NCBI GenBank assembly: GCA_044377715.1
Contig: JBILYN010000001.1
Location: forward strand, 13,892-77,891
DNA from: Aquabacterium sp.
Lineage (GTDB): Bacteria; Pseudomonadota; Gammaproteobacteria; Burkholderiales; Burkholderiaceae_C
Length of the DNA stretch: 64,000 nt
Reading direction: 5' to 3'
Part shown: in pieces, positions 6,046-56,393 of the stretch
Numbering within the stretch: the first letter of the stretch is position 1
Layout of the letters: the number at the start of each line of letters is the position of its first letter
Translations under genes and position numbers: made by a program
The notes under the pieces: generated by a model
Told to the model about the DNA's origin: nothing
The model's database searches: none
Seen by the model: only the letters and a program-made list of their open reading frames with translations

Positions 6046-6121
6046 CTCTCGAGTAAATGTGGCTTGGCCACTTTGCTTGACCCCCCATGGGGGGCGGCCG
6101 GCGTCGGCCGGCCTCGGGGCG
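6046..6121 (-). repeat. 75-nt triple-hairpin dispersed element, copy 1 (76 nt, most diverged)
   Basis: Reverse complement is CGCCCCGAGGCCGGCCGACGCCGGCCGCCCCCCATGGGGGGTCAAGCAAAGTGGCCAAGCCACATTTACTCGAGAG; matches copies at 15140, 40002, 50122 and 56319. Confidence 0.95.
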
Positions 6122-6136
6122 CTCAGTGCCGCGGGC

Positions 6137-7126
6137 TCAATCGGTGGCGCCAGCCAGCCCCAGCCGTTCGACCACCCGCCGCTCGCTCTCGTAGGCGGCG
6201 CGCAGCGAGCGGGCATAGTCTTCCGGGCCCAGGTAGCTGATCTCCTGGTCGTAGAGCGCCAGCTCGGCCAGGTGTTCGGGGGCGTTCATCGCGCTGCGAA
6301 AGGCGTCGTGCAGGATCTGCACGACATGCGGCGGGATGCCGGCAGGCCCGGCGATGCCGTAGGGTGAGCTCGCGACGATGCCGTGACCCAGCTCTTGCAG
6401 CGTGGGCACGCTGGGCCAGCGCTTGGTGCGGTACTCGCCAAAGGTCACCAGCAGGCGCAGCCGGCCGCTGTCGACGAAGGGCGCGAAGCCGTTGGAGTTG
6501 ACCCCGACCATCACCTGGCCCGACGAGACCGCGATCATCTGCTCGGCTGTGCCTTTGTAAGGCACGTGGATGTAGCTCAATCCCCGCTTGCCGAACAACT
6601 CGTCGACCACCCCATGCGGCGTGGTGCCGGCGCCGTTGGTGGCGATGGTCAGCGCGCCAGGGTGGGTGCGGGCATAGGTGAACAAGTCGTCCAAGCTGCG
6701 CAGGCCGCTGGCCGCTGGCACGACGATGCCGAAGGTCACGCCCGAGAGCTGGATGATGGGCGTGGTGTCGCGTATCGGGTCCCACAGCACCTTGCGGGTC
6801 CAGGGCGCGCGCAGCACGGTCTGCGGCATCTGGGCCAGCGTGTAGCCGTCGGGCGCGGCCTGCTGCAGGATGGGCATGGCCAGCGTGCCGCCGGCCCCGC
6901 CGCGGTTCTGTACCAAGATCTTCTGGCCGAGCTGGCGCGACGCGGCTTCGCACAGCACGCGAAAGCTCAGGTCGGTGGCACCGCCTGCTGGCCAGGGCAG
7001 CCAGAGATTGATCGGTCGGGTCGGAAAGCGTTGCGGCGCCTTGGCCAGCGCGGCGCCCCAGGCCGGTCCGAGTGCTGCGGTGGACAGCCAAGCCAGCAGC
7101 TGTCGGCGCTTGCCTGAGCGGTTCAC
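6137..7126 (-). CDS. Tripartite tricarboxylate transporter substrate-binding protein (Bug/TctC family)
   Basis: FPTRPINLWLPWPAGGATD, VQNRGGAGG, DGYTL, HVPYKGTAE, PSVPTLQELG. Confidence 0.92.
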   Translation of the reverse strand: MNRSGKRRQLLAWLSTAALGPAWGAALAKAPQRFPTRPINLWLPWPAGGATDLSFRVLCEAASRQLGQKILVQNRGGAGGTLAMPILQQAAPDGYTLAQMPQTVLRAPWTRKVLWDPIRDTTPIIQLSGVTFGIVVPAASGLRSLDDLFTYARTHPGALTIATNGAGTTPHGVVDELFGKRGLSYIHVPYKGTAEQMIAVSSGQVMVGVNSNGFAPFVDSGRLRLLVTFGEYRTKRWPSVPTLQELGHGIVASSPYGIAGPAGIPPHVVQILHDAFRSAMNAPEHLAELALYDQEISYLGPEDYARSLRAAYESERRVVERLGLAGATD

Positions 7127-7401
7127 GCCGGACTCCCGCTTAAGGTCAGTGCTTCGGCCTGCAATCGAGCTGGTGCGACGGTTATTTTCATGGGCGCTGT
7201 TTGTAGTGGCTCAGCCCACAACTGCAAAGCTTCGCGGATTGCTCGCAACCCCTTGCCGGACTATATCGGTCTGGTGCGCAAGCACTGGCCTGCCGCGAAA
7301 GTCGTTCGCCGTCGACAATGGCCGCTGGAGCGCCGGGCAGACAAGCCTGCGCTTGTCGTGTCGCCGTGGCACAGTCCGGTTCAAACCCCAGGAGAAAACG
7401 A

Positions 7402-8190
7402 ATGGATCTCGGAATTTCAGGCAAGTGGGCATTGGTCTGCGCGGCCAGCAAAGGCCTGGGCAAGGGTTGCGCGCAGGCGCTGGTTCGCGAAGGCTGCAAC
7501 GTCGTCATCACAGCACGCGGCGACGAAGCGCTGCAGGCGACTGCGGCCGAACTGCGGGGCATCAACCCTGCCGTCAAGGTGATCACGGTGGCCGGCGACA
7601 TCACCACGCCCGAAGGCAGGGCGGCGGCGCTGGCAGCTTGTCCGCAAGTCGACATCCTCGTCAACAACGCTGGTGGCCCGGCACCGGGCGACTTCAGGAC
7701 CTGGGACCGCGAGGCCTGGATCAAGGCCTTGGACGCCAACATGCTCACACCGATCGAACTGATCAAGGCATGTGTCGACTCGATGGCCGAGCGCGGTTTC
7801 GGCCGCATCGTCAACATCACATCGGCTGCGGTGAAAGCGCCTATCGACATCCTGGGCCTGAGCAATGGCGCCAGGTCAGGCTTGACCGGTTTTGTCGCCG
7901 GTGTTGCGCGTCAGACGGCGCTGGCTTCGCGCAATGTGACGATCAACGGCTTGCTGCCTGGTCCGTTCGACACCGACCGGCTGCGCACCACGATGGCGGG
8001 TGCGGCGCAAAAAAGCGGGCAGCCGATCGAGGCCGTGCTGGCCTCGCGCCGCAAGCTCAACCCGACCCAGCGCTTCGGCTCGGCCGAAGAGTTCGGCGCG
8101 TTCTGCGCTTTCATGTGCAGCGCCCATGCCGGCTACATGACCGGGCAGAACATCCTGCTCGACGGCGGCGCCTACCCCGGCACCTACTGA
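7402..8190 (+). CDS. SDR family oxidoreductase (atypical SNxxR active-site subgroup)
   Basis: MDLGISGKWALVCAASKGLG, DILVNNAGGP, GRIVNITS, LSNGAR, ITVNGLLPG-like segment, LLDGG. RBS GGAG upstream. Confidence 0.9.
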   Translation: MDLGISGKWALVCAASKGLGKGCAQALVREGCNVVITARGDEALQATAAELRGINPAVKVITVAGDITTPEGRAAALAACPQVDILVNNAGGPAPGDFRTWDREAWIKALDANMLTPIELIKACVDSMAERGFGRIVNITSAAVKAPIDILGLSNGARSGLTGFVAGVARQTALASRNVTINGLLPGPFDTDRLRTTMAGAAQKSGQPIEAVLASRRKLNPTQRFGSAEEFGAFCAFMCSAHAGYMTGQNILLDGGAYPGTY

Positions 8191-8197
8191 CCTGATG

Positions 8198-8226
8198 GCC
8201 TGGGCCCGCAGCCTGCGGGCCCAGGC
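8198..8226. terminator. Strong hairpin between convergent genes (possible bidirectional terminator)
   Basis: GCCTGGGCCCGCAG-C-CTGCGGGCCCAGGC is a 14-bp perfect inverted repeat; there is no clear U-tract. Confidence 0.55.
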
Positions 8227-8241
8227 TGGCTCAGCTGCCGA

Positions 8242-10755
8242 CTAAAGCCACAACACCTTGCGCCGCAACTCGAGGTCGCGCGACAGTTCGGCCGACGGAC
8301 CCAGGTAAGTGACCGCGCCGCGCTCCAGCGCGACGGTGCGGTCCGACAGCGCGAGCGCCAGGTCGAGGTGGTGGTCGACGATCAGGATCGCCACCTCGTG
8401 GCGCAGCTTGTCGAAGGCTTCGAACAACTCCTCGACGATGGCCGGTGCCAGACCCTCGAAGGGCTCATCGAGCAGCAGCACGCGGGTGTCACCCGACAGC
8501 GCCCGGGCCACCGCGACCATCTGCTGCTCGCCGCCGGACAGGTAGTCCGCAGGCGAGCGCCAGCGCTGCTTGATGCGCGGGAAGAAGCCGAAGATCTTCT
8601 CCTCTTCCCAGTGGATGCCGGCGTTGTTGCGCCGCTTCAGGCGCCCCAACTCCATGTTCTCGGCCACCGACATGCCAGCAAACAAGCCCCGACCCTGCGG
8701 CACATAGGCCACGCCGCGGCGCGCGATCTCGGCCGATGGGCGGCGCGCCAAGGTTTCGGTCCCCAGCGTGATCTGGCCGCTGGCCGGCGGGCTGATGCCG
8801 ATGATGGTCTTGAGCAGCGTCGACTTGCCCGCGCCGTTGCGCCCGAGCAGCGCAACAATCTCGTTGTCGTGCAGTTCGAAGCTGACGTCGCGCAGGATGT
8901 GGCTCTTGCCGTAGAAGGTGTTCACGCCTTCGACCCTTAGCAGGATGGTGTCGCGCGCTGCGCTCGGTCGCTCGACGGCCGCCAGCGCATGCGAGCCCGC
9001 ACCGATGTAGACCGCTTGCACCTGCGCCGAGTCGCGCGCATCGTCGACGCTGCCGTCGACCAGCACCTCACCGTCGTTCATCACCGTGACACTGTCGGCC
9101 AGCGCAAACACCCGGTCGATGTCATGTTCGACCAGCAGCACCGGCAGGTCGGCCGAAATGCGCTTGATCAGGCTGCCGACGCGTTCGCGCTCGGCCGCTG
9201 CCAGCCCCGCCAGCGGTTCGTCTAGCAGCAGCAAGCGCGGCCGGGTGGCCAGCGCGAGTGCCATGTCGAGCAGGCGTTGGCCGCCATAGGACAGCGACGA
9301 GGCCTGCGCCTGTTCGACGCCGGCCAACCCCATCGTGCGAACCACCTCGGCGGCGTCGCGGTTGACATCGTGCAGTGAGGCCGCATCGGCCCACAGCGCG
9401 AAGCGCTGGGGATGCCTCGCCTGGATCGCCAAGCGCACGTTCTCGGCCACCGACAGGGTCGCGAACAGGTTGGTGATCTGGAACGAGCGGCCGATGCCGG
9501 CTTCGGTCACTTGCTCGGGCGCGAGCCCGGCGATGGCCTGGCCGCCCAGTGTGATCGTGCCGCGGTCGGGCGCGAACAGGCCCGATATCAGGTTGAAGGC
9601 ACTGGTCTTGCCGGCGCCGTTGGGCCCGATCAGCGCATGCAGCTTGCGGTCGCGCAGGCGCAGCGACATGTTCTTGATCGCCTGGATGCCGCCAAAGCTC
9701 TTGGCCAGGCCCGTGGCCACCAGCACCTCCTCGGGGCCGCCTCGCGCCGGCTGCAGGAAGTCGGGCAGCGTCACCAGACCTGGCAGGCGCAGCGCCATCG
9801 CCGCGTCGTCCTCGACCGATTTGCGCCAGCGCGCTGTGGCGCGCTCGTACAAACCGACCAGACCGGTTGGCGAGAAGACGATGAAGGCGACGAACAGCAG
9901 ACCGAAGAAGAGCAACCAGTTCTCGGTCACGCGCGACAGCGAGTCGCGGAAGATCACGAAGAACAGAGCCCCCAGCGCTGGCCCCAGGAAGGACCGCATG
10001 CCGCCGATGATCACCATCGCCAGCAACTCGCCCGAGAACGCGACCGAGATCGGCTCGGCCGAGGTCATGCGGTTGTTGAATGCCAGCAGCATGCCGGCGA
10101 GTCCGGTCAGGCTGGCTGAGGCGACGAATGCGGTGAGCTTGACGCGGTTGGTCGGGTAACCGACGAAGCGCGCGCGCTGCTCGTTCTCCCGAATCGCCAC
10201 CAGCACGGTCCCCAGCGGCGAGCGGTGGAAGCGCCACAGCGCCAGCAGCGCGGCGAAGCTGATCGCCGCGACCATCGCGTAATAGGCTGCAGCGCTGTCA
10301 AACGACAAGCCGCCCAGCGTCGGCCTGACGATGCCGCCCAGACCGTTTTCGCCGCCGGTGAAATCGGTCCAGCGAAACGCCACCGAGTACAACATCGCCG
10401 ACAGCGCGAGCGTGAGCAGCGAGAAATACACGCCGCGCCGACGCAAGATCAGAAAGCCGAAAGCCCAGGCGATGGCCGCGACCAGCGCCAGGCCCAGCGC
10501 TAACGGGACGAAGAAAGCGCCTGGGAACAGGTCGCGCTGGACCATTGCCGCCGCATAGGCCGCCAGCCCGAACCAGGCCCCGTGGCCAAAGGAGGTCAGG
10601 CCGGAATAGCCGACCAGGATGTTCAGGCCCATGCAGGCCAGCGCGAAGATCACCACCTCGGTGGCCGATGTCACGCCCAGGCCCAGCAGTGACAGCGCGA
10701 AAGGCAGCAGCAGCAGCGCCAGCGCGGCAACGAGGAGGTCGCGTTTCTGAGGCAT
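8242..10755 (-). CDS. Fused branched-chain-type ABC transporter permease (LivM) + two ATPase domains (LivG + LivF)
   Basis: 837 aa from MPQKRDLL. Permease motifs GLTSFGHGAWFG, GGENG, AIRENEQRA, IIGGMRS; two Walker A motifs (GPNGAGKT, GRNGAGKS) and two Walker B motifs (LLLDEP). Confidence 0.92.
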   Translation of the reverse strand: MPQKRDLLVAALALLLLPFALSLLGLGVTSATEVVIFALACMGLNILVGYSGLTSFGHGAWFGLAAYAAAMVQRDLFPGAFFVPLALGLALVAAIAWAFGFLILRRRGVYFSLLTLALSAMLYSVAFRWTDFTGGENGLGGIVRPTLGGLSFDSAAAYYAMVAAISFAALLALWRFHRSPLGTVLVAIRENEQRARFVGYPTNRVKLTAFVASASLTGLAGMLLAFNNRMTSAEPISVAFSGELLAMVIIGGMRSFLGPALGALFFVIFRDSLSRVTENWLLFFGLLFVAFIVFSPTGLVGLYERATARWRKSVEDDAAMALRLPGLVTLPDFLQPARGGPEEVLVATGLAKSFGGIQAIKNMSLRLRDRKLHALIGPNGAGKTSAFNLISGLFAPDRGTITLGGQAIAGLAPEQVTEAGIGRSFQITNLFATLSVAENVRLAIQARHPQRFALWADAASLHDVNRDAAEVVRTMGLAGVEQAQASSLSYGGQRLLDMALALATRPRLLLLDEPLAGLAAAERERVGSLIKRISADLPVLLVEHDIDRVFALADSVTVMNDGEVLVDGSVDDARDSAQVQAVYIGAGSHALAAVERPSAARDTILLRVEGVNTFYGKSHILRDVSFELHDNEIVALLGRNGAGKSTLLKTIIGISPPASGQITLGTETLARRPSAEIARRGVAYVPQGRGLFAGMSVAENMELGRLKRRNNAGIHWEEEKIFGFFPRIKQRWRSPADYLSGGEQQMVAVARALSGDTRVLLLDEPFEGLAPAIVEELFEAFDKLRHEVAILIVDHHLDLALALSDRTVALERGAVTYLGPSAELSRDLELRRKVLWL

Positions 10756-10757
10756 GG

Positions 10758-11627
10758 CTACTCGAAGCGCTGGATGCGGTCGCCGAACAGGCCGCGTGGG
10801 CGCACCAGCAGCACCAGCAGCATCAGCAGGTAGATCGCGGCCTCGGAGTACTGCGAATAGCCCAGTGCCGTGACCACGCCTTTGGTCAGTCCCACGACCA
10901 GCGCGGCCAGCACCACGCCCCAGAACGAACCCAGGCCACCGATCACGACCACCACAAAGGCCGAGGTGATGATCTCGGCGCCCATCGCCGGGTGGATCGC
11001 GAAGATGGGCGCCAACATCACGCCCGCCAACCCGGCCAGGCCCACGCCCAGGAAAGCGATCGCCGCCATATAGGGTTCGAGCGAGATGCCCAGCGCCCCC
11101 ACCATGTCGGGGTTCTGCACGCCGGCCCGTACCACCCGGCCGAACGGCGTTCGCTGCAGCAGGTACCACAGTGCGGCAACACAGCCCGCAGCGACCATCA
11201 GCAGCAGCATGCGGTAGCGCGGGTAGACGAAGTCGCCGATGAAGATCTGGCCGCGCAGTTCCTGCGGTATCGACCACGCCAGCGGCGGCGCGCCGTAGAC
11301 CATGCGCAGCGTCTGCTCGGCGACCATCGCCAGGCCGAAGGTCAGCAGCAAGGACAGCGCCGGGTCTGCTTTGTAGAAGCGTCGAAACAGCAGCCGCTCG
11401 ACCAGCACGCCCAAGCCGCCGACCGCCAGCGGCGACAGCAGCACCGCACCGGTGAACCCGAGCGACTGCCCAATGCTCACGGCTAGGTAAGCGCCTATCG
11501 CGTAGAACGCACCGTGCGCCAGGTTGACGATGCCGCCGAGCGAGAAGATCAGCGACAGGCCGAGGGCTATCAGCAGGTAATAGGCCCCGGCCAGCAGACC
11601 GTTGAGCAGTTGTTGGATGAACAGCAC
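10758..11627 (-). CDS. Branched-chain-type ABC permease (LivH)
   Basis: QQLLNGLLAGAYYLLIALGLSLIF, VNLAHG, FVVVVIGGLGS, RPRGLFG; GTG start. Confidence 0.92.
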   Translation of the reverse strand: MLFIQQLLNGLLAGAYYLLIALGLSLIFSLGGIVNLAHGAFYAIGAYLAVSIGQSLGFTGAVLLSPLAVGGLGVLVERLLFRRFYKADPALSLLLTFGLAMVAEQTLRMVYGAPPLAWSIPQELRGQIFIGDFVYPRYRMLLLMVAAGCVAALWYLLQRTPFGRVVRAGVQNPDMVGALGISLEPYMAAIAFLGVGLAGLAGVMLAPIFAIHPAMGAEIITSAFVVVVIGGLGSFWGVVLAALVVGLTKGVVTALGYSQYSEAAIYLLMLLVLLVRPRGLFGDRIQRFE

Positions 11628-11659
11628 TTGGCGGGCGGGCGCGGGGTCAGGCTGTCATG

Positions 11660-11685: not shown

Positions 11686-11690
11686 GCTGT

Positions 11691-13804: not shown

Positions 13805-14767
13805 ATGCTGCTGTTCTCGATCGACCCTGAATGCAGTTTTGCGTCGGCGCTCGCCGACGCGCTGGACGAATCGCTGTCGCCGCACGAGGATCGCAGCTTC
13901 GAGGATGGCGAGCACAAGCTGCGGCCGCTGGTCGACCCGCGCGGCGCCGATGTCTATGTGCTGGCCAGCCTGCACGGCAGCCCGCGCTTCAGCCCGCACG
14001 ACCGCTTGTGCCGATTGCTGATGTTCGTCGCGACCTTGCGCGATCACGGCGCGGCCCGCGTGACCGCGCTGGTGCCCTATATGGCCTACGGCCGCAAAGA
14101 CCGCCAGACCCAGCCCTTCGATCCTGTGGCGCCGCGCTACCTGGCGCAGTGGTTCGAGGCCGTCGGGGTAGACCAATTGGTCGTGCTCGAGGCGCACAAC
14201 CTGGCCGCCTTCCAGAACGCTTTCCGTTGCCCGACGCTGCACTTGGCGGGGCATCGGGTCTTCGATACCGCCGTGTCGGCATGGGTCGGCGACCGACCTC
14301 TGGCGGTCGCCTCGCCCGATCCGGGTGGCGTCAAGCGCGCCCAGCTGTGGCGTGAGTCGCTGGCGCAGCGCCTGGCACGCCCGGTTGGTTTTGCGATGGT
14401 CGACAAGCGCCGCAGCGCCGGGCAGCTCAGCAGCCGCGGTCTGGTCGCCGGCGAGGTCGAGGGCATGACCGTGCTGTTGATCGATGACTTGATCGCCAGT
14501 GGTCAGACCTTGCGGCAAGCCGCGCAAGCCCTGCGCCAGGTCGGCGCACGCGAGGTGATCGGCTGCGCAACGCATGGCTTGTTCACCGGTCAGGCTGCCG
14601 AGGCGCTGGTCGACCCGGCGCTGTCTCGGGTGCTGGTGACCGACAGTGTGCCTAGCTTTCGGCTAGCACCCGATGCGCCGGTCCGCAGCAAGCTGCAGGT
14701 CGTTCCGGTGCTGGGTTTGTTCGCGCAGGTGGTCAGGGATTGCCGCGACTCGTGGTCAAGACGCTAG
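13805..14767 (+). CDS. prs: Ribose-phosphate pyrophosphokinase, accessory paralog
   Basis: FEDGE, VPYMAYGRKDR, VASPDPGGVKRA, VDKRR, LIDDLIASGQTL, ATHGLF. Diverges from housekeeping Prs (LEAHN in place of DLH). Confidence 0.8.
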   Translation: MLLFSIDPECSFASALADALDESLSPHEDRSFEDGEHKLRPLVDPRGADVYVLASLHGSPRFSPHDRLCRLLMFVATLRDHGAARVTALVPYMAYGRKDRQTQPFDPVAPRYLAQWFEAVGVDQLVVLEAHNLAAFQNAFRCPTLHLAGHRVFDTAVSAWVGDRPLAVASPDPGGVKRAQLWRESLAQRLARPVGFAMVDKRRSAGQLSSRGLVAGEVEGMTVLLIDDLIASGQTLRQAAQALRQVGAREVIGCATHGLFTGQAAEALVDPALSRVLVTDSVPSFRLAPDAPVRSKLQVVPVLGLFAQVVRDCRDSWSRR

Positions 14768-15270
14768 CGTCCTGGTGAGGCCTGCCAGCCGGTGCGCTGG
14801 CTGACGAAATCCACGATGTGCTCGATCGCCCGCCCCGACTCGGGCAGGAATGGCGTGACCTGGAACACATGCGGGGTTTCGGGCCAGATCGACCTCGACA
14901 TCGACACCTGCGGCATGGGCTTTGTGCGCGACGCGAACCGCTTCGTCGCGCAGCAACTCGGAGCTACCGGCCTGCAGCAACAGCGGCGGGAAGCCGATGA
15001 AATCGGCAAACAGCGGCGACACCTCGGGGTGGGTGTAGAGCGCAGGCGATGGCACATAGTGTCCTCTCAGCACCAACAGGTTGCTCAGTCGCAGCACCGG
15101 GTCGCTGTGCTGGTTGTCGACCATGCTCGGGCTGCTGAGCGCCCCAAGGCCGGCCGAAGCCGGCCGCCCCCCGTGGGGATCAAGCAAAGTGGCAAAGCCA
15201 CATTTGCTGGAGAGGGTGCAGTCCACCGCCGGTGACGGAGCACCGCGCAGGCCGGCATCGGCTCGCCGCG
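14764..15270 (-). pseudogene. C-terminal remnant of an HSL-family alpha/beta hydrolase (esterase), two frameshifts plus an in-frame 75-nt insertion
   Basis: Reconstructed as RGEPMPACAVL/SPAVDCT[insert]LSSPSMVDNQHSDPVL..VSPLFADFIGFPPLLLQAGSSELLRDE..AGVDVEV/IWPETPHVFQ. The HGGG and GDSAG motifs are absent. Confidence 0.8.
15140..15214 (+). repeat. 75-nt triple-hairpin dispersed element, copy 2 (inside the esterase remnant)
   Basis: CGCCCCAAGGCCGGCCGAAGCCGGCCGCCCCCCGTGGGGATCAAGCAAAGTGGCAAAGCCACATTTGCTGGAGAG. Confidence 0.95.
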
Positions 15271-15297
15271 CCCCGCTGATCAACGCCCAGGCGTCGA

Positions 15298-33531: not shown

Positions 33532-33621
33532 TGGCGGAAGCGGTGAGATTCGAACTCACGGTGGAGTTACCCCCACGGCAGTTTTCAAGACTGCAGCCTT
33601 AAACCACTCGGCCACGCTTCC
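33532..33621 (-). tRNA. tRNA-Ser (anticodon UGA)
   Basis: Reverse complement GGAAGCG..GCAGT-CTTGAAA-ACTGC, long variable arm, GTGAG-TTCGAAT-CTCAC, CGCTTCC-G-CCA; 90 nt, class II. Confidence 0.97.
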
Positions 33622-38947: not shown

Positions 38948-39024
38948 AGCCCCGAGCTCACTGCGTTCGCTGCCCCAGGGGGCCTGCAGCCCCCTTGGGA
39001 CGACCCGGCGGAGGCTGCAATGAG
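38948..39024 (+). repeat. 77-nt palindromic insert (family 3) flanked by an AATGAG direct repeat, encoding a 26-aa relay ORF (38943..39023)
   Basis: AATGAG at 38942-38947 and 39019-39024; internal stems GGGGGC/GCCCCC and TGCAGCC/GGCTGCA; ORF MRAPSSLRSLPQGACSPLGTTRRRLQ*. Confidence 0.75.
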
Positions 39025-39996
39025 CCGCGCAAGCGCGACCAGCTTGCTGGCGCCGTCGAAGTGGCGGCTCTGGGAAATCGTCTTGTGGGCGGCGATCTGG
39101 GGCGCGACCATCGTGTTTGGCCAGCATGCGGCGCTGGTCAACGAGATCGCGATTCTGGCGCTGTTCGCACTCTCGCTCGACCTGATCCTGGGCTATGCCG
39201 GCATTGTCTCGCTAGGACACGCGGCATTTTTTGGCGTCGGTGCTTACGGCGCGGCGCTGTTCGCCAAGCATGTGATGCCCGATCCGATGGTCGGATTGGC
39301 CGTGGGTGCAGGCCTGGGCGCGTTGCTGGGTCTGGTCACCAGCCCGATGATCGTGCGCGGTACCGACCTGACCCGGCTGATGGTGACGATGGGCGTGGCC
39401 CTGGTGCTGCTGGAGTTGGCCAACAAGTTCGACGGCCTGACTGGCGGCACCGACGGGCTGCAAGGTGTGGTGATGGGCCCGTTGCTGGTCCCGTTCGTCG
39501 GTCGCTTCGAGTTCGACCTGGGCGCAAGGGTGGCATCGTTCTATTCGCTGACGGTGCTGTTCATCGCCTTCTTGCTGCTGCGCCGCATCGTCCATTCGCC
39601 GCTCGGCATCTCGCTGCAGGCCTTGCGTGATAACCGGCTGAGGTTGATGGCGATCGGGCTGTCGGTCAACAGCCGACTGGCGGCGGTCTACACGCTGGCG
39701 GCTGGGCTGGCCGGCGCGGCCGGGGCCTTGCTGGCGCAGACCACCGGATTCGCTTCGCTCGATGTGCTTGAATTTCACCGCAGCGCTGACGTGATGCTCG
39801 CACTGGTGATCGGCGGCGCCGGCTGGCTGTGGGGCGGGTTGGTTGGGGCGATCGCTTTCAAGGTCTTGCACGACTTGATCTCGTCCTTCACGGCCCAGTA
39901 CTGGACCTTCTGGATCGGGCTGTTCCTGGTGCTGCTGATGCTGGTCGGGCGCGAGCGGCTGTTCCGGCCTTGGTCCTGGTTCAAGCGGGGTCAGCC

Positions 39997-40000
<4 letters not shown>
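39020..40000 (+). CDS. Branched-chain-type ABC permease (LivM)
   Basis: GYAGIVSLGHAAFFGVGAY, GGTDG, ALRDN, LVIGGAG. Confidence 0.92.
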
Positions 40001-40867
<867 letters not shown>

Positions 40868-40875
<8 letters not shown>

Positions 40876-49106: not shown

Positions 49107-50120
49107 ATGAACATGAAGATCGCCATCGTCGGCGCGGGCGCCATCGGCGGTTACCTGGGCGCGAGGCTGGCTGCGGCGGGCGAGGACGTCACGTTCATCG
49201 CCCGCAACCGCAACCTGGCCGCCATCAACGCCCATGGTTTCAGGCTGATCCTGGAGGACGGCAGCACACTGCACGCGTCCAAGGTTCGCGCGGTCGAGCA
49301 AATGGCCGATGCTGGGCCACAGGACGCCGTGCTGCTGACCGTCAAGGCACACCAGGTTCGCGATTTGTTGCCGGCGCTGCGCGCGCTGTTCGGTCCACGC
49401 ACGCTGCTCGTGACGATGATCAACGGCGTGCCCTGGTGGTATTTCCAGAAGCTGGCCGGGCCTTATGAAGGCCGGGCGGTGACCCGCGTCGACCCTGACG
49501 GCGTGCTGGCTGCGGGCATCGAGACCGAGCGCATCATCGGCAGCGTGGTCTACCCGGCGGCCGAGTTGGTCGAACCGGGCTTGGTGCGGGTGATCGAGGG
49601 CAACCGTTTCACGCTGGGCGAGCTCGACGGCAGCCGCAGCGAGCGTGTCGAATCGCTGTCGCGTGTCTTCATGAATGCCGGCTTCAAGTCGCCAGTGTCG
49701 CGCGACATCCGGGCCGAGCTCTGGGTTAAGCTTTGGGGCAACCTGAGCTTGAACCCGATTTCGGCGCTGACCCACGCGACCTTGGAAGAGATCTGCCGAT
49801 TCCCGTCGACGCTCGCGCTGGTCGAACGCATGATGACCGAAGGCCAGTCGGTGGCCGAGGCATTGGGTGTGCGTTTCAAGATCTCGCTGGCCCAGCGAAT
49901 CGCCGGCGCTGAGGCCGTCGGTGCGCACAAGACTTCGATGCTGCAGGATGTGGAGAGCGGACGCGCGCTGGAACTCGAAGCGCTGGTCGGTGCGGTGGTC
50001 GAACTCGGGCAGATCACCGGAACGCCGACGCCGACCATCGAAGCGATCCATGCGGTCACCAGCTTGCTCGGTCGAACGCTGACGCAGCGTCATGGGCGGC
50101 TGGCGTTGCAGCCGATCTGA
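49107..50120 (+). CDS. Ketopantoate reductase family protein, probable oxalyl-CoA reductase (PanE2-like)
   Basis: MKIAIVGAGAIGG, NGVPWWYF, WVKLWGN, HKTSMLQDVE, LELEAL; start 49107 or 49113. Confidence 0.8.
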   Translation: MNMKIAIVGAGAIGGYLGARLAAAGEDVTFIARNRNLAAINAHGFRLILEDGSTLHASKVRAVEQMADAGPQDAVLLTVKAHQVRDLLPALRALFGPRTLLVTMINGVPWWYFQKLAGPYEGRAVTRVDPDGVLAAGIETERIIGSVVYPAAELVEPGLVRVIEGNRFTLGELDGSRSERVESLSRVFMNAGFKSPVSRDIRAELWVKLWGNLSLNPISALTHATLEEICRFPSTLALVERMMTEGQSVAEALGVRFKISLAQRIAGAEAVGAHKTSMLQDVESGRALELEALVGAVVELGQITGTPTPTIEAIHAVTSLLGRTLTQRHGRLALQPI

Positions 50121-50121
50121 C

Positions 50122-50196
50122 CGCCCCAAGGCCGGCCGAAGCCGGCCGCCCCCCGTGGGGATCAAGCAAAGTGGCAAAGCCACATTTGCTTGAGAG
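50122..50196 (+). repeat. 75-nt triple-hairpin dispersed element, copy 4
   Basis: Begins 1 nt after the panE2-like TGA stop; lies between convergent genes. Confidence 0.95.
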
Positions 50197-50221: not shown

Positions 50222-51043
50222 TCAGGGCTCGCTGAGCACGCGCCAAGCCATGTAGCTGCCCAGGCCGTACAGCAGCACCGCGAACACTCTTTTCAGTTGT
50301 TGCGTGTCCAAGGAATGCGCGAAGCGCGCGCCCAGCGGGGCGGTCAGCATGCTGGCGACTGCAATCACGCCGAGCGCGGGCAGCATCAGGTAGCCTGACG
50401 CGCCGGGTATGACGGCGGGCAAGTTCCAACCGGCGATCACATAGCCCAAGGTATTGGCCAGCGAGATCGGGAAGCCCAGTGCCGCGCTCGTGGCCACGGC
50501 CTGGCTCATCGTGATGTTGCACCAGGTCATGAACGGCACCGAGATGAACGCGCCGCCAGCGCCCACCAGGCCTGACACCAGACCGATCGCGCTGCCGGCG
50601 GCGCCCGCGCCTAGCGGCCCCGGCATTTGCCGGCTGGGTTTAGGCTTGCGATTGACCAGCATCTGGGTGGCCGAGAAGACGACGAAGCCGACGAACAACA
50701 GCGCCAGCGCCCGACCCTTGAGCAATGAGAAAACACCGGCGCCCGATAGCAGCCCGCCGATCACGATGCCTGGCACCAGTTGGCGCACCAAGTCCCAGCG
50801 CACTGCACCGCGCCGGTGGTGCGCTCGAACGCTGGAAAGCGAGGTGAACAGGATGGTCGCCATCGAGGTGGCGATCGCCATCTTCACGGCCAGACCTTGC
50901 TCGATCCCGCGGTGGTTGAAGATGAAGGTCAGGAAGGGCACCATCAGCATGCCACCACCAATGCCCAACAGGCCGGCTAAAAAGCCGGTGAACACCCCCA
51001 GCGCAAGCAACTCCAACACCAACATGGGATCGAGAAACGACAT
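50222..51043 (-). CDS. Sulfite exporter TauE/SafE family protein
   Basis: GFLAGLLGIGGG, AIATS, SGLVGAGG, AVATSA, APLGA. Confidence 0.9.
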   Translation of the reverse strand: MSFLDPMLVLELLALGVFTGFLAGLLGIGGGMLMVPFLTFIFNHRGIEQGLAVKMAIATSMATILFTSLSSVRAHHRRGAVRWDLVRQLVPGIVIGGLLSGAGVFSLLKGRALALLFVGFVVFSATQMLVNRKPKPSRQMPGPLGAGAAGSAIGLVSGLVGAGGAFISVPFMTWCNITMSQAVATSAALGFPISLANTLGYVIAGWNLPAVIPGASGYLMLPALGVIAVASMLTAPLGARFAHSLDTQQLKRVFAVLLYGLGSYMAWRVLSEP

Positions 51044-51516
51044 CAGGTCTCCGGGGGCAACAACAAAGCGATCACAGCCTGCCATTCGGTGGCGGTGACG
51101 GGGGTGATCGACAGCCGGTTGCCAGGTTTGAGCAAGACCATCGTCGAGAGTTCGGGTCGCCCGCGCATCTCGCGCAGCGACAGCAACCGGGTCTTGTCGA
51201 CCAGCCTGACGGCCACTTGCAGCCAACGCGGCGAGTCGGGTTGCGACTTGGCGTCGAAGTACTGGCTCGAAGGATCGAACTGGGTGGCATCCGGGCCGGC
51301 TTCGCTGACCACTTCGGCCAGGCCCGCCACGCCGGGCAAGGCGCAGGACGAGTGGTAGAACAACACGCCGTCGCCGGGCCGCATCGCATCGCGCATGAAG
51401 TTGCGCGCCTGGTAATTGCGCACACCCACCCAGCTCAGGGTCTGACCGGGTGCCTGTGCCAGATCGTCGATCGAGCAGTCTGCAGGCTCGCTTTTCATCA
51501 ACCAGTGGCGTGGCAT
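51043..51516 (-). CDS. EVE domain protein
   Basis: HWLMKSEP, WVGVRNYQARNFMRD, FYHSSC, DATQFDPSS, RLSITPV. Confidence 0.93.
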   Translation of the reverse strand: MPRHWLMKSEPADCSIDDLAQAPGQTLSWVGVRNYQARNFMRDAMRPGDGVLFYHSSCALPGVAGLAEVVSEAGPDATQFDPSSQYFDAKSQPDSPRWLQVAVRLVDKTRLLSLREMRGRPELSTMVLLKPGNRLSITPVTATEWQAVIALLLPPET

Positions 51517-51520
51517 GGGT

Positions 51521-51696
51521 GTCCGTTGCGAACCGTGAGCCGCATTCCTGATCCCTAAGGGAGGATCAGGTGGGCGAGGTCAGCGAAGCTTCGGGTTCAT
51601 CTGACGCGAGACGATCACACCAGCCTCGCAATATCCCAAGCCCTGGCTCAATGAGCATCGGATCAAGGAAATTAGACTCACGCAAACGCAACGGAC
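51521..51696 (-). ncRNA. ssrS: 6S RNA
   Basis: Downstream of zapA; closing stem GTCCGTTGCG/CGCAACGGAC; internal ATTTCCTTGA, GAACCCGAAG, GCCCACCTGATCC..GGATCAGG; -10-like TAGAAT at 51703-51708. Confidence 0.88.
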
Positions 51697-51753
51697 GATC
51701 CCATTCTAAGCATGCCGGCGGGGTGCCGGGCTGTTGAAAGGCTGCGAAAAATT

Positions 51754-52080
51754 TCACAGCAGTTGGCCGTCGTCGCCAAGTGCCTGGTCGATGCGGCGGA
51801 TCAAGTGGTCGACGTCTAGCGTGCCGGCTTCGGTCGCCACAGCGACGGCCGCACTGCTGGCCGGCAGCGGTGCGACATGGGCATGCTCTGCGCGTTGGTA
51901 TGCGAGGTTCAGCGCAGTCAGCACGGCGATTCGCTCGCGCGCCTTGACCTTGCCAGCATCGCGAATCAGGCTCATCTCCCGGTCGACGATGGCCACCGCC
52001 TCGCGCAGCAGGGCTTCGCCGTCGGGCGGACAGGACAGCATGTAGCTCTGGCCCAGGATGGTGGTTTCGACCTGCTTCAT
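51754..52080 (-). CDS. zapA: Cell division protein ZapA
   Basis: MKQVETTILGQSY, AVAIVDREM, ERIAVLTALN. Confidence 0.9.
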   Translation of the reverse strand: MKQVETTILGQSYMLSCPPDGEALLREAVAIVDREMSLIRDAGKVKARERIAVLTALNLAYQRAEHAHVAPLPASSAAVAVATEAGTLDVDHLIRRIDQALGDDGQLL

Positions 52081-52319
52081 GCGATGTTCCGGTCGGCTGC
52101 GCTGACTGGATCGGCCGGTTTGGGCGCCGCGTCGGTGGGCAAGCGGTCCAGCAGTGCGTCAATGCGGGCACGGGCCGCAGCCAGCCTGGATTTCAGGCTG
52201 TCGCGCTCGCTGCTCACGCTGCCCAGTTGTTGCTCGAGCAGCGCATTGGTGCGCTTGAGTTCCTCGTGCCGCAGCACCAGGCGTTCGATTCGCTCGGCAA
52301 GATCATCGAGTCTCGACAT
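52077..52319 (-). CDS. Small coiled-coil protein (ZapB/DUF904-like)
   Basis: MSRLDDLAERIERLVLRHEELKRTN..ERDSLKSRL; ATGA-coupled to zapA. Confidence 0.8.
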   Translation of the reverse strand: MSRLDDLAERIERLVLRHEELKRTNALLEQQLGSVSSERDSLKSRLAAARARIDALLDRLPTDAAPKPADPVSAADRNIA

Positions 52320-52414
52320 GGGCTGCAGCCGCTTCCAGTAGGTGAGCCTCATTGTAGGCGGCGGGTCGGGACGATCGACCCGCAGGTTTGCAACTCGGCG
52401 CCTGCGGTAGGATT

Positions 52415-52678
52415 GCCGCTGTTGGTGCTCCGGCCGCTTGTCAAAAGATGGCTGGGTTAAACGGGAAGCAGGAAGGCTGCCATCCAGCGGATGGCGAGCT
52501 TGCAACCAATCGGTCGCAGTCTCAACAGCCCAACCTGCGCTGCCCCCGCAACGGTAAGCGGACGGAATTTGACAGACCTTGCGGTCAGCCGATTCCCGCT
52601 CCTGTGTCTGACGCCACTGACCGTGTCCACGGTTGGGAAGGCCACAGGGGTTGTTTCCGCCAGCCCGGATACCGGCCA
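52415..52678 (+). promoter_or_regulatory. Cobalamin riboswitch
   Basis: GGTGC, TTAAACGGGAAGCAGG, CCTGCGCTGCCCCCGCAACGGTAAG, GCCACTG, TGGGAAGG, GCCAGCCCGGATACCGGCC, all upstream of btuB. Boundaries approximate. Confidence 0.92.
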
Positions 52679-52768
52679 ACAGGGGGCTGCACGCGCCTTG
52701 CGCGTGTGGCCACATTGGCCGGCGATCGCGGGGAAGCGGGAGCAGGCGGGCACGGCATTTCTTCTTCC

Positions 52769-54616
52769 ATGACTCCATTCCTCAAGGCGCGCTGCGTCAT
52801 CTCTGCGCTGGGCGTGTGCCTGACGTTTCTGTCTTGTTTCGCCGTCGCCGATGACGCCGCGACGGTGGTCGTCACTGCTGCGCGATCTCCACAGTTGCTC
52901 ACTGACGCGCTGCCTCACACCACTGTTTTGCTGCGTCAGGACATCGAACGCTCGCAGGCGGTGGACCTGCCAGCCTTGCTGGCCGCCGAGGCCGGTGTGC
53001 AGTTCGCCAGCAACGGTGGGCGTGGCACTGTGACCTCGTTGTTTCTGCGCGGTGCGCCGACGCGCCAGGTGCTGGTGCTGGTCGACGGCGTCATGCTGTC
53101 GCGCCAGGACGCGACGGGGCTGGTCGGCATTGAGCATCTGATGCTCGACCAGGTCGAGCGCATCGAAATCGTCCGTGGCAATGTTTCGGCGCTGTACGGC
53201 GGCGGGGCCGTAGGCGGCGTGATCCAGGTCTTCACCCGCCGGGCCGACGCCACACCGCAAGCCAGCCTTAGGATCGAAGCCGGTGCGCGCGGCTTGGTCC
53301 ACGGCGCGGCCCAGACCACCGCGCAATTCGGCAGCACCCAGGTCTCCTTTGGTGTGTCGCGTGTTTCGGACCAGGGTTTTTCTGCACTGGATCCGGCCCA
53401 GGTGCCCCCTGCCAACCCCGATCGCGACGGCTACCGCAACACCAGTGCGTCGCTCAAGCTGTCGCAGGCACTTGCCGAAGGGCATCGCCTGGGCTTGGCT
53501 TGGGTGCACAGCGACGGCAGGCTCGATTACGACAGCGCTTATGCCACCCCGGCCGACGTGCAAACCAGCCGTACTCGCAAGGACTTGCTGAGCTTGAGCA
53601 GCGATGACCAGATCACTGCGACCTGGTCCAGCCGCTTGAGCCTGTCGACCCAGCGCGATGATGCGCGCTACGACGAGAGCGGTGACTTCGGCTTTGCCGG
53701 CCGCTACAAGACCACGGTCGATGCGCTGAACTGGGCCCACAACATCAGCCTGTCGCCGGCCACGGCACTGAGTGCCGGCGTCGACTTGCAGCGCCAGCGC
53801 ATCGTCGCCGACGACGGTTTCGGCGGGACCTTTGACAAGTCGCGCCAGGTCTCGGCCTGGTTTGCCGGCCTGCAATCTCGCCTGGGCGACCACGATCTGG
53901 CGTTCAATCTGAGGCGCGACCAAGTCGGCGGCGTCGGGTCGCGCAGCAGCGGCAGCCTGGCCTGGGGCTGGCAGGTGGCGCCAGCTTGGAAGCTGATAGG
54001 CAACCTCGGCAACGCCTTCAGCGCACCGCCTCTGGGCTACTTGTACGCGCCTTTTTACGGCAACCCGGCGCTGCAGCCTGAGCTGGCACGTTCGGTCGAG
54101 GCGGGGCTGCAATGGGCGCTGGCCGGCCAGCGGCTGCGGGCCACGCTGTTCCAGACCCGGGTCAGCCAGGAATTGGAGTACGACACGGTCAGCAACAGTT
54201 TCGGCAATGTCGCGCGCACACGCAACCGTGGGCTCGAGGTGTCCTACAGCGGTCGTATTGGCCGCAGCGACCTTCGCGCCAGCCTGACGGCGCAGAACCC
54301 GATCGATGCCAGCAGCGGCGCGCAGCGCTTGCGCCGGAGTCAGTCACTGGCCTCGGCTGCGCTTTCGCAGGAGCTCGTTGGCGGCTGGCGCACTGGCCTG
54401 GCGGTCCGCGCGGTCGGTGCTCGGCCCGACAGCGGCGATGTAGCGCTACCGGCCTATGTGGTGGCCGACCTGACCGCGCAGTGGCACATCAACCGCGACC
54501 TGCAATGGTTCGGCAGGGTCGAGAACCTGGGCGATGCGCGCTACCAGACCGCCAGCGGCTACGCCCAACCCGGGCGCGGGCTGTTCACCGGCCTGCGCTG
54601 GCGGCTGTCTCTCTGA
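52769..54616 (+). CDS. btuB: TonB-dependent cobalamin receptor
   Basis: VVVTAARSPQ, SLFLRG, VLVLVDGV, IEIVRGNVSALYG, YQTASGYAQPGR; follows the B12 riboswitch. Confidence 0.88.
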   Translation: MTPFLKARCVISALGVCLTFLSCFAVADDAATVVVTAARSPQLLTDALPHTTVLLRQDIERSQAVDLPALLAAEAGVQFASNGGRGTVTSLFLRGAPTRQVLVLVDGVMLSRQDATGLVGIEHLMLDQVERIEIVRGNVSALYGGGAVGGVIQVFTRRADATPQASLRIEAGARGLVHGAAQTTAQFGSTQVSFGVSRVSDQGFSALDPAQVPPANPDRDGYRNTSASLKLSQALAEGHRLGLAWVHSDGRLDYDSAYATPADVQTSRTRKDLLSLSSDDQITATWSSRLSLSTQRDDARYDESGDFGFAGRYKTTVDALNWAHNISLSPATALSAGVDLQRQRIVADDGFGGTFDKSRQVSAWFAGLQSRLGDHDLAFNLRRDQVGGVGSRSSGSLAWGWQVAPAWKLIGNLGNAFSAPPLGYLYAPFYGNPALQPELARSVEAGLQWALAGQRLRATLFQTRVSQELEYDTVSNSFGNVARTRNRGLEVSYSGRIGRSDLRASLTAQNPIDASSGAQRLRRSQSLASAALSQELVGGWRTGLAVRAVGARPDSGDVALPAYVVADLTAQWHINRDLQWFGRVENLGDARYQTASGYAQPGRGLFTGLRWRLSL

Positions 54617-54631
54617 ACAACGCGGCATGAC

Positions 54632-55567
54632 ATGGGCTTGACCGCTACCCGTTTGAGCGTCTTGGCCGCGGGCTTGCTCGGGCTGCTGCTGCTCGCTGTG
54701 CTGGCGGGGCTGGCGCTGGGCAGTGCGGGGCTGGACCGCGAACTGATCATCGAACTGCGCGCTCCCAGGGTGGCGGCGGCGGTGGGCGTGGGCGCGCTGT
54801 TGGCGCTGGCCGGCTTGGCGATGCAGGTGTTGCTGCGCAACCCACTGGCCGATCCCTATGTGCTGGGCACCTCGGGAGGGGCGTCGGTCGGTGGCTTGTT
54901 GGCGCTGATGTCGGGATTGAGCCTGTGGCTGGGCGCCGGCCTGGGTGCGTTGTTGGCCGGCGCCGTGTTGCTGGCTTTGACCCGCGCAGCGCTGGCATCG
55001 ACCGATGACGCGTCGCCTCGGCTGGTGTTGACCGGCGCGATGCTGGCCTCGCTGTGCGGTGCGATCGCCACACTGCTGCTGGCGCTCACGCCCGACCAGC
55101 GCTTGCGCGGGGCCATCTTCTGGCTGGTCGGTGACCTGTCGGGTGCCCAGGGCGGCCTGGGTTGCGGCGCGGCTGCGCTGGTCTTCGCCGCTTGGTTGAG
55201 CTGGCGCGGTCAGGCGATAGACCGCTTGCAACTCGGCAGCGAAGTCGCTGCGCTGCTGGGAGAGCCAGTGCGTCGATTGCGCCTGCTGCTGCTGGTGGCT
55301 GCTTCGCTGGCCGCCGGCTTGGCGGTGGCCTGCGCCGGCGCGATCGGTTTCGTCGGTCTGGTGGTGCCGCAGGCTTTGAGGCTGGTGGGCGTGCAGCGCA
55401 TCCGCGACCTGGCCTGGATGAGCGCGGTCGGCGGCGCTGCCTTGCTCACGCTGGCTGATTTGCTGGCGCGCACCATCGTCGCGCCGCTCGAACTGCCAGT
55501 GGGCGCAGTGATGGCCTTGGTCGGTGCGCCGATGTTCATCGCGGTGCTGGCGCGGGGGCCGCGGTGA
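54632..55567 (+). CDS. FecCD/BtuC-type ABC permease
   Basis: ELRAPR, LLRNPLADPYVLG, GAIGFVGLVVP, ELPVG. Confidence 0.88.
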   Translation: MGLTATRLSVLAAGLLGLLLLAVLAGLALGSAGLDRELIIELRAPRVAAAVGVGALLALAGLAMQVLLRNPLADPYVLGTSGGASVGGLLALMSGLSLWLGAGLGALLAGAVLLALTRAALASTDDASPRLVLTGAMLASLCGAIATLLLALTPDQRLRGAIFWLVGDLSGAQGGLGCGAAALVFAAWLSWRGQAIDRLQLGSEVAALLGEPVRRLRLLLLVAASLAAGLAVACAGAIGFVGLVVPQALRLVGVQRIRDLAWMSAVGGAALLTLADLLARTIVAPLELPVGAVMALVGAPMFIAVLARGPR

Positions 55568-56316
55568 CCGCGACTGTGGCGCCAACGCCCTTGTTGCAGG
55601 CCTGCGGACTGAGTCTGCACGCGGCCGGGCGCTGCTTGGTACAAGGCCTGGACTGGCAGGTTCATCCGGGCGAGCGCTGGTGCGTGATCGGCCGCAATGC
55701 TGCGGGCAAGAGCACGCTGCTGCGTGCACTGGCTGGGCTGCCGGTTCCCGAGCGCAGCGGCGAGCTGCGCTGGCTGGGTCGTGGCCAAGCCGATTGGTCA
55801 GCCGCCGATGCTGCCTGGGCCCGTGCCTATGCGCCGCAGCAGGCAGTCGACCGTTTCCCGCTCAGCGTTCAGCGCCTGCTCGAGCTCTCGGTGGTCCGGC
55901 CTGGGCCGCGGCGAGCGGCCACGCTGCTGGCCGATCTCGATGCCCAGGGGCTGGCCACGCGCGGCGTGATGCAGCTCTCGGGCGGCGAGCGCCAACGCAT
56001 CGCACTGGCGCAATGCGCGCTGCAGGGCGCGCCGTTGATGTTGATGGACGAGCCGGTGTCGTTCCAGGACCCGGCGCACCAGATCCAGGTCGCGCGTTGG
56101 CTGGCCGGGCTGGTCGCACCTGGTACCGACGCTGCGTTGGTGGTCAGCGCGCACGACGTCAACTGGATCGTCCACACCGCGACCCATGTGTTGGCCTTGT
56201 CGGGCGAGGGTCGATGGGAGGCAGGACGCTGCGAAGACTTGATCGACGCGGCGATGCTGCAGCGTGTCTATGGCTGCGCTTGGCGCGAGGTGGGTGGTTT
56301 CTGGGTCGCTGCCTGA
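55564..56316 (+). CDS. ABC ATP-binding protein (BtuD/FepC-like)
   Basis: GRNAAGKST, LSGGERQR, LMDEP, SAHD; GTGA overlap with the permease. Confidence 0.88.
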   Translation: MTATVAPTPLLQACGLSLHAAGRCLVQGLDWQVHPGERWCVIGRNAAGKSTLLRALAGLPVPERSGELRWLGRGQADWSAADAAWARAYAPQQAVDRFPLSVQRLLELSVVRPGPRRAATLLADLDAQGLATRGVMQLSGGERQRIALAQCALQGAPLMLMDEPVSFQDPAHQIQVARWLAGLVAPGTDAALVVSAHDVNWIVHTATHVLALSGEGRWEAGRCEDLIDAAMLQRVYGCAWREVGGFWVAA

Positions 56317-56318
56317 GT

Positions 56319-56393
56319 CGCTCAAGCAAATGTGGCTTTGCCACTTTGTTTGACCCCCATGGGGGGCGGCCGGCTTCGGCCGGCCTCGGGGCG
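56319..56393 (-). repeat. 75-nt triple-hairpin dispersed element, copy 5
   Basis: Begins 1 nt after the btuF-like TGA on the minus strand; lies between convergent genes. Confidence 0.95.

Follow-up and report, generated by a model that had tools for sequence, protein, structure and literature searches.

What is a sequence of 75 nucleotides (nt) that folds into three hairpins, occurs five times within 64 kb and stands each time directly behind a word beginning with TGA? The question is raised by a 64,000-nt stretch of the genome of Aquabacterium sp., a freshwater member of the Burkholderiales (assembly GCA_044377715.1, contig JBILYN010000001.1), which we call the window and in which an earlier note, made from the letters alone, had described this sequence as a mobile element. 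Here, we propose that the element is most probably a family of small, non-autonomous mobile DNA elements. The family is a new and undescribed one of small structured bacterial repeats, with a TGAG target and a preference for stop codons. Recent activity, which the earlier note had supposed, is supported by precise presence/absence differences between sister species and by 24 identical copies in one genome.

Copies in the window and beyond

The genome to which the window belongs (G000) comprises 5.26 Mb in 603 contigs with about 66% G+C, and was compared with sister species of the same genus (G002, G014, G218 and G219). A pattern search found three window copies with at most one mismatch to the consensus and none in shuffled sequence, and sensitive blastn found all five copies where the earlier note had placed them, each behind TGAG, TGAC or TGAT. 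Read in the orientation of the element, the four preceding bases are TGAG at 6046, 15140 and 40002, TGAC at 50122 and TGAT at 56319. With neighbouring genes annotated by Pfam, the copies and their targets are as follows.

40002 to 40076, plus strand: reference copy, 100% identical to the consensus, between the stop of a LivM-type permease gene and the body of a LivG-type ATPase gene
39998 to 40001, plus strand: TGAG target of the 40002 copy; its TGA is the stop of the permease gene (39020-40000), and the word pre-exists in the empty site of G002
50122 to 50196, plus strand: copy that matches the consensus at 100% identity and directly follows the TGA stop (TGAC) of a PanE/ApbA gene (49107-50120)
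56319 to 56393, minus strand: copy of subfamily B (94.5% identity) in a convergent gap, behind the TGA stop (TGAT) of a periplasmic binding-protein gene (56395-57249, minus strand)
15140 to 15214, plus strand: copy with one mismatch, antisense and in frame in the remnant of an alpha/beta-hydrolase gene
15136 to 15139, plus strand: TGAG target of the 15140 copy, not a stop codon
6046 to 6121, minus strand: older copy of 76 nt (89.5% identity) in the 3' region of a TctC gene (6137-7126, minus strand)

Three of the five copies (40002, 50122 and 56319) adjoin true stops. The 6046 copy starts 15 nt past the TctC stop (6137-6139), and its TGAG (6122-6125) lies 11 nt past that stop and so is not a stop codon.

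The expectation of many more copies elsewhere proved right. Blastn of G000 gave 158 high-scoring segment pairs (HSPs) and at least 106 near-full copies with flanks, a lower bound, with 8 HSPs reaching contig ends. Among the 106 copies, 24 are mutually identical and 28 match the consensus over positions 1-73; in 4 of these 28 the last two bases (AG) differ. Several contigs carry head-to-tail arrays with an exact 75-nt period and the junction TTGAGAG/CGCC (here and below a slash marks the junction). Several subfamilies coexist in the genome, including one of 70 nt in which CG stands in place of 7 bases in the 5' arm of hairpin 3 and of which five identical copies lie at different loci. Hence neither an intact long hairpin 3 nor a length divisible by three is needed for spread.

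The element was found in most of the genus's genomes and, within the family, in 7 of 151 sampled genera. A 33-nt core had exact matches in public assemblies labelled Rhizobacter, Rubrivivax, Ideonella and Pseudaquabacterium, along with many lake metagenome-assembled genomes (MAGs), some of them evidently mislabelled; the carriers include cultured isolates of Rhizobacter, Ideonella and Pseudaquabacterium. Lake MAGs labelled 'Bordetella parapertussis' (CAMCTC01..., CALQBT02...; loci L001-L005 and others) hold dozens of copies whose flanks match the genus of Aquabacterium, and the label looks wrong.

Insertion target, empty sites and cut point

Flank positions -4 to -1 read T in 92, G in 103, A in 99 and G in 100 of the 106 copies, and are better conserved than much of the element itself. 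The A found ten times at -4 comes from units inside tandem arrays, where the preceding bases are ...AGAG. A weaker, extended preference, Y(-7) W(-6) Y(-5), occurs at stop-adjacent and other copies alike and not at background TGAG sites, and in public genomes of other species 44 of 60 copies also have the TGAG flank. The earlier note was therefore right that a TGAN word precedes every window copy, but the rule is (Y-W-Y)TGAG rather than TGAN.

Relatives with empty sites, on which the earlier note had let its reading depend, were found among the sister species at six loci (further ones being sought with a concatenated query of joined flanks), and at four of these (livM/livG, the hydrolase gene, C63 and C37) exactly 75 nt are missing. 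Between livM and livG, the empty site reads gccATGAG/TGAGgtggtg in G002 and gccATGAA/TGAGgtggtg in G014, and the occupied site reads gccATGAG-(75 nt)-TGATGtggtg in G000. At the 15140 copy, the empty sites are GGGCTGCTGAG/CGTGCAG in G218 and GGGCTGCCAAG/GGTGCAG in G002, and G000 has ...CTGAG-(75 nt)-GGTGCAG. The C63 site is empty in G014 and G219, and the C37 site in G218. Several empty sites have 1-3 positions that differ from TGAG, which would be expected were the element received only by lineages whose target is intact.

The 50122 insertion is shared with the sister species G014 and is thus older than that split. The 6046 site is occupied in G218, and the 56319 site, empty in G219, holds a copy in both G002 and G218. 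In the empty site (locus L173, compared with window positions 56394-56397) the binding-protein gene ends in TAG-C, not TGA.

The TGAG word pre-exists and is not duplicated as a 4-mer, and the element has no inverted termini, its ends CGCCCCAAGG and GCTTGAGAG not being mutually inverted. It is inserted as a block, exactly 75 nt at four of the six empty-site loci, immediately 3' of an existing TGAG. Where precisely the cut falls is less sharply defined. GAG stands at both junctions of essentially every copy, at the end of the left flank and at the end of the element, so that the cut point slides by up to 3 nt and canonical copies can be read equally as '75 nt without duplication' or as '72 nt with a GAG repeat'. 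Base variation at the left junction does not covary with that at the right, which speaks against a genuine duplication of the target. Target-site duplication models of 2-5 nt were considered and were either rejected or undecidable, given the missing junction covariation and the net gain of 75 nt at four loci. The empty C37 site (TGAC/cgcg) matches the last base of the unit (GAGAC) and not the preceding TGAT, which hints that the cut possibly comes after TGA.

Might the GAG itself be a recombination core? A small circle of 75 nt, or a multimer of it, could recombine at this 3-nt core, or be copied there by a rolling circle, through a tyrosine or serine recombinase or an IS91-type Y2 enzyme. The presence of GAG at both junctions would follow from such a model, as would the arrays with their exact 75-nt period and TTGAGAG/CGCC junction; at the C37 site a cut after TGA is a better fit than a cut after TGAG, and the last 2 nt vary among otherwise identical copies. 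The two 'core' variants, left and right, nevertheless fail to covary, and a circle junction and a tandem array look alike in the present data. Taken with the enzyme searches described below, we regard this explanation as unlikely. For the arrays alone, slippage between flanking GAG repeats or insertion of multimers would suffice.

A conserved architecture of three hairpins

The 75-nt unit consists of CGCCCC(A/G)A, hairpin 1, GCCCCCC-NNN-GGGG (hairpin 2), a bulged hairpin 3 of 14 base pairs (bp) and a final GAG. In the reference copy the hairpins are placed as follows.

40010 to 40027, plus strand: hairpin 1, GGCCGGC-CGAA-GCCGGCC
40029 to 40040, plus strand: hairpin 2, CCCC-CCGT-GGGG, with 94.8% of cells paired (helix 3 of the alignment)
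40042 to 40073, plus strand: hairpin 3, the most conserved module, with a stem of 14 bp, a single bulged A and a loop of AAA

The triple-hairpin fold described in the earlier note was recovered both as RNA (minimum free energy -41.3 kcal/mol, z -5.7 against shuffles) and as DNA (-27.2, z -6.9), with the same three hairpins. No U-tract follows any of them. The 33-nt core (element positions 41-73), which is hairpin 3 and one more base, is identical in several genera.

Covariation was computed on an alignment of 48 sequences, in which 93.6% of cells are paired. Double changes occur in 12 pairs, against 3.6 expected in shuffles, and 12 or more were reached in 0 of 500 shuffles. Eight of these 12 pairs lie in hairpin 3, where 8 of the 14 pairs show compensatory changes, and covariation maintains the hairpins in at least 8 genera of the Rubrivivax/Rhizobacter group. 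Distant genera have AAGG...CCTT for AAGC...GCTT in hairpin 3, and also ATGAGC...GCTCAT; a wholly different variant, CTGAGCAGACCGGC-AAT-GCCGG(A)TCTGCTCAG, retains the bulged A. Hairpin 1 is swapped in other genera for unrelated hairpins (GGAAATGTC-TTC-GACATTCC and GGGCCGGGC-GGTG-CCCGGCCC). As judged from these variants of distant genera, the architecture is maintained while the sequence changes.

What would such a constraint act on? Covariation runs between subfamilies, which fits a constraint on mobility. The 6046 copy has lost pairs and old copies decay, so that the constraint would lie on the element lineage and not on each copy. Hairpin 3 and the C/G-run motifs could be recognition features for a trans-acting enzyme, and such recognition would explain both the compensatory changes and the identity across genera.

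In Rfam at gathering thresholds the element copies had no match, and a permissive Rfam scan of one copy gave chance-level matches only (E at least 2). We found no description of the element in Rfam or in the searchable literature, and the novelty that the earlier note had left to be checked therefore stood.

Preference for gene ends

Genes of G000 were called with a simple codon-usage caller (4,297 genes, 82.6% of the sequence). Among 95 non-tandem copies, 42 lie directly behind a called same-strand TGA stop, 48 are otherwise intergenic and 5 are in called genes. Of the genome's TGAG sites, 1,078 are at stops, 6,268 lie in other intergenic positions and 19,907 fall in genes. Occupancy is 4.4-5.5% for stop TGAG sites versus 0.65-1.6% for other intergenic ones, promoterless convergent gaps included (3.5-7x, approximate with so crude a caller of our own; Fisher p = 0.002 and 5e-8). 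With both classes limited to YNYTGAG, the figures are 7.3% and 2.1% (Fisher p = 1.3e-5). TGA is the main stop codon in G000, and the stop survives insertion. Away from stops, co-directional gaps hold 9 sense and 9 antisense copies, and 11 more copies are found in divergent gaps. The next start is mostly 30-300 nt away from a copy, and an ATGA overlap is bridged by the livM/livG copy alone.

In light of this preference, could the copies mainly serve the host? REPs near stop codons affect translation and mRNA decay in Escherichia coli, and the copies described here might likewise act as RNA hairpins in 3' untranslated or intercistronic regions (in mRNA stability or in termination at UGA) or as protein-docking sites, as argued for some REPs. 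The strong enrichment behind stops in sense orientation is in keeping with such a role, and so are a structure kept by covariation and a 33-nt core identical across genera. Against it, both orientations are equal off stops and 11 copies sit in divergent promoter gaps, presence and absence differ at orthologous sites, old copies decay, copies occur inside genes and in a pseudogene, no U-tract or Rfam match was found, and the covariation lies between subfamilies. We therefore hold a mainly host-functional family to be rather improbable, somewhat more so than the recombination of circles considered above. That the element is selfish, not host-functional, is supported by the 9 versus 9 orientations off stops and by the loss of pairs in old copies.

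A recoding signal read together with UGA, SECIS-like or read-through-promoting, was also considered. A stable hairpin begins 9 nt after the UGA, and from there the frame has no stop through the element. However, over half of the copies lie elsewhere than behind a stop, and many are inverted; the host genes are functionally unrelated and the frame downstream shows no conservation. The distribution of copies led us to reject such a role, SECIS-like or read-through, which has, in our estimate, almost no chance of being correct.

Most copies are probably neutral passengers of the host. Landing on TGA-G spares the stop and lies upstream of 3' signals, which would, we infer, be sufficient reason for the excess there. 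By analogy with known repeats, strong hairpins right behind a stop may affect mRNA decay or termination. Alternatively, and we think this improbable, the element seeks stops: a mobilisation system without a detectable Y1 or Y2 HUH partner would recognise hairpin 3 and direct insertion to the UGA/TGA-G ends of genes, and repeated hits, made independently at the same gene ends in different species, would reflect site-seeking, not gene conversion. If this were true, the element would be the stop-codon counterpart of start-codon-seeking MIRU-like elements.

Copies inside genes

Genuine in-frame intragenic copies exist but are rare, about 5% of copies lying within called genes. Four of the six frames of the 75-mer have no stop, as the earlier note had stated, and with the TGAG prefix a single forward frame stays open. 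The note had further suggested that a length of 3n and open frames let the element enter genes. In-frame copies do exist, but the 70-nt subfamily spreads too and few copies are genic, so that an adaptation to this end is not supported.

The two window copies that had been placed in coding sequence, in opposite orientations, are indeed there, and the sister orthologues lack exactly 75 nt at both. This agrees with the stated restoration of the host frame on removal of 75 nt, with the nuance that the 40002 copy lies just after the ATG of LivG and the 15140 copy in a pseudogene remnant. The ATG at 39997, which overlaps the livM stop (ATGA), reads in frame through the 40002 copy and so would place 25 more amino acids on LivG. 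The readthrough is MSAPRPAEAGRPPWGSSKVAKPHLLES, followed by the conserved DVVLQTHDLVKRF, with SAPRPAEAGRPPWGSSKVAKPHLLE as a predicted peptide in LivG. In this LivG-type ATPase gene (39997-40875) the ATG is usable only via the 25 element codons, with GTG at 40081 or 40084 as an alternative restart.

The orthologue of the hydrolase gene in G002 has the motifs HGGSF and GDSAGG. The gene in the window, of the esterase/lipase type, is a pseudogene (14756-15283, minus strand) that has lost about 650 nt relative to G002 and G218; the deletion takes its 5' part and start, with the joint near 15267 between short CTCGCC repeats.

Elsewhere in G000, an antisense in-frame copy (C312:3341-3415) adds 25 residues (LSSKCGFATLLDRHGGRPALAGLGA) to the CoA-transferase III domain (CoA_transf_3) of an 810-aa protein, a domain that spans 401 residues against a profile of 366 positions; a peptide predicted in this CoA-transferase reads LSSKCGFATLLD(R/P)HGGRPA(L/S)AGLGA. 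A sense copy is internal in C294, and sense copies lie near the C-termini in C148, C377 and C599.

Search for the mobilising enzyme

Which enzyme might move the element? The short, fixed target, the lack of inverted termini and of duplication, and a hairpin near each end are reminiscent of HUH-type nick-and-join. The chemistry closest to this pattern would be a single-strand nick-and-join of that type, or a 75-nt circle recombining at the GAG core. HUH-like chemistry is the best analogy, to which the association tests give no support; a circle with a GAG core, or a rolling circle, would account just as well for the 75-nt arrays and the ambiguous junction.

The most concrete candidate of the HUH type is a REPIN- or PATE-like derivative moved in trans by a Y1 HUH transposase (RAYT, or the TnpA of IS200/IS605), with a single-stranded intermediate inserted 3' of TGAG. 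Such a mobiliser had been proposed by analogy in the earlier note. It would account for insertion 3' of a fixed word of 4-5 nt without duplication or inverted termini, and for subterminal hairpins, and the 3' end of the element, (A)GAG, resembles the target, (T)GAG. G000 also holds Y1_Tnp genes, at four PF01797 (Y1) loci.

Y1 locus 1: G000, a frameshifted IS200-like gene of low G+C
Y1 loci 2 and 3: C20, an IS605-type tnpA, and C394, a related tnpA fragment, both at contig ends
Y1 locus 4: C281:1789-2631, a RAYT-like HUH/Y1 gene of 281 aa with a C-terminal helix-turn-helix

Neither the element nor its modules were found within 1.2 kb of any of these four loci, and the RAYT-like gene has unrelated inverted repeats of its own on both sides (GGGTCAGGTCTTG / CAAGACCTGACCC), along with a tandem 31-nt direct repeat (GTGTGAAAACAAGACCTGACCCCAGGCTT). 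Homologues of the RAYT-like protein occur in 126 of the 151 genera, against 7 for the element; it is near-ubiquitous and does not track the element. At a cut-off of E<=1e-5, PF01797 was not detected in five genomes that carry the element (G053, G152, G186, G187 and G002; completeness 99% in 30 contigs for G186, 100% for G187 and 61% for G002). IS200/IS605 elements show a strong lagging-strand bias. No replication-strand bias was seen for the element in a small sample of 38 copies, with GC skew measured locally on contigs: the G-rich strand carries 20 of the 38 and, in regions of strong skew, 14 of 24, the gene baseline being 57%. Hairpins 1 and 3 are unlike each other, and sequence inspection found neither a GTAG/CGTC tag nor a guide-like complement of TGAG 5' of either hairpin foot. 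With no flanked Y1 gene, no co-occurrence and no strand bias, the mobiliser of the earlier note was not borne out, and we rate movement by a Y1 enzyme as doubtful, on a par with the circle model.

IS91-type enzymes fared no better. Y2_Tnp genes occur in several element-rich genomes and in 0 of 14 control genomes, in favour of the circle or rolling-circle explanation, but are absent from five carriers (G219, G023, G075, G152 and G002). No element modules lie within several kb of the IS91-type genes of G186, G188, G015, G053, G218, G014 or G000. In G000, IS91-family (Y2) fragments stand at the contig ends of C6, C539, C248 and C164, a multi-copy insertion sequence that breaks the assembly.

Genome scans for Y1_Tnp and Y2_Tnp found none on the contig of the window, which was not checked exhaustively for transposases. 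A longer, gene-bearing autonomous version of the element was not found either, partial matches being truncated or decayed copies or the 70-nt subfamily. Genes between close pairs of copies are ordinary housekeeping genes, with no mobiliser candidate among them.

Observations that weigh against a mobile element

Several results fit less easily with the proposal that the family is mobile, or that it has moved recently. No mobilising enzyme was tied to the element in any test run. At C513, the best reading of the comparison with G219 is a net gain of 72 nt, not 75. The livM/livG site is occupied in G000 and, by a diverged copy, in the more distant relative G023, and is empty in the closer G014 and G002. 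The C37 site (C37:4138) has the 75-nt type in G000 and the 70-nt type in G014 (L181), and the C140 site (C140:33885) has the 75-nt type in G000 and a 69-nt type in G218 (L175). These three awkward loci could be accounted for by repeated hits at the same site, by precise excision and re-insertion, or by gene conversion, the last of which could also make copies look younger than they are. The locus of the 40002 copy is contained in many lake metagenome runs, where contigs break at the repeat. Contigs from four of these runs gave no allele without the insert, and none skips exactly 75 nt; ongoing movement within populations is thus not demonstrated. The crude gene calling mentioned above counts here as well.

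Other features of the window

Rfam matches in the window comprise a cobalamin riboswitch (52406-52694, plus strand) upstream of a transporter cluster, a 6S RNA (51518-51698, minus strand) and an 87-nt tRNA (33535-33621, minus strand).

Comparison with known systems

The element works most like the REP/REPIN and IS200/IS605 miniature elements, yet it fails their defining tests. With the REP, BIME and REPIN sequences of enterobacteria, Pseudomonas and Stenotrophomonas it shares short, G+C-rich hairpin repeats in high copy number, mostly extragenic and often at the 3' ends of genes, which can be modular or mosaic and are confined to clades and non-autonomous. Unlike the REP/REPIN-RAYT system, it has no GTAG/CGTC tag at any hairpin, either in the consensus or in the variants. 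It consists of three distinct hairpins in one orientation, in head-to-tail arrays, with no inverted REP doublet; it has a fixed TGAG word, and no RAYT gene is flanked by it or co-occurs with it. The miniature elements of IS200/IS605 (PATEs, 'peel and paste') are alike in having neither inverted termini nor duplication, in lying 3' of a word of 4-5 nt and in their subterminal hairpins. They differ in that the end hairpins of the element are unrelated to each other, no parent insertion sequence with such ends was found, strand bias is lacking and Y1 was not detected in several carriers.

The MIRUs of mycobacteria are described as landing on start codons with a coupled small open reading frame (PMC12548453). 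They too are short units, also in tandem, at gene junctions of operons, leaving the neighbours intact, and one copy of the element sits on an ATGA overlap. In contrast, the element has strong hairpins and targets TGAG, mostly after stops and with the next start usually far away. Rickettsia palindromic elements, which the earlier note had offered as an analogy, are likewise palindromic repeats found in frame in genes, where they add a peptide (here to CoA-transferase III, LivG and several C-termini). Sequence, host clade and size are unrelated, though, only about 5% of the element's copies are genic and the defined target word is the element's own, so that the likeness is one of behaviour, not of membership. 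IS91/ISCR and Helitrons also insert by a fixed tetranucleotide without duplication and have a 3' subterminal hairpin near the end, but they are kilobase-sized and encode Y2/RepHel, and no IS91-type gene of the genomes examined carries the ends of the element. A MITE of the DDE type would have terminal inverted repeats and the junction covariation of a target duplication of fixed length, neither of which the element has.

Significance

Bacterial operons are shaped by small structured repeats, which also interrupt assemblies and are used as markers in typing. To our knowledge, for most of them neither the mechanism of movement nor the rule of insertion is known. The element presented here is a clean case, with a fixed target of 7 nt, exact boundaries taken from natural empty sites, a several-fold preference for stops and covarying hairpins. 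It explains many contig breaks in MAGs of abundant lake Burkholderiales, and real proteins gain peptides from it, an ABC ATPase and a CoA-transferase among them. The cultured carriers in Rhizobacter, Ideonella and Pseudaquabacterium make experiments possible and, since the obvious HUH transposases fail the association tests, finding the mobiliser could reveal a new enzyme-DNA partnership.

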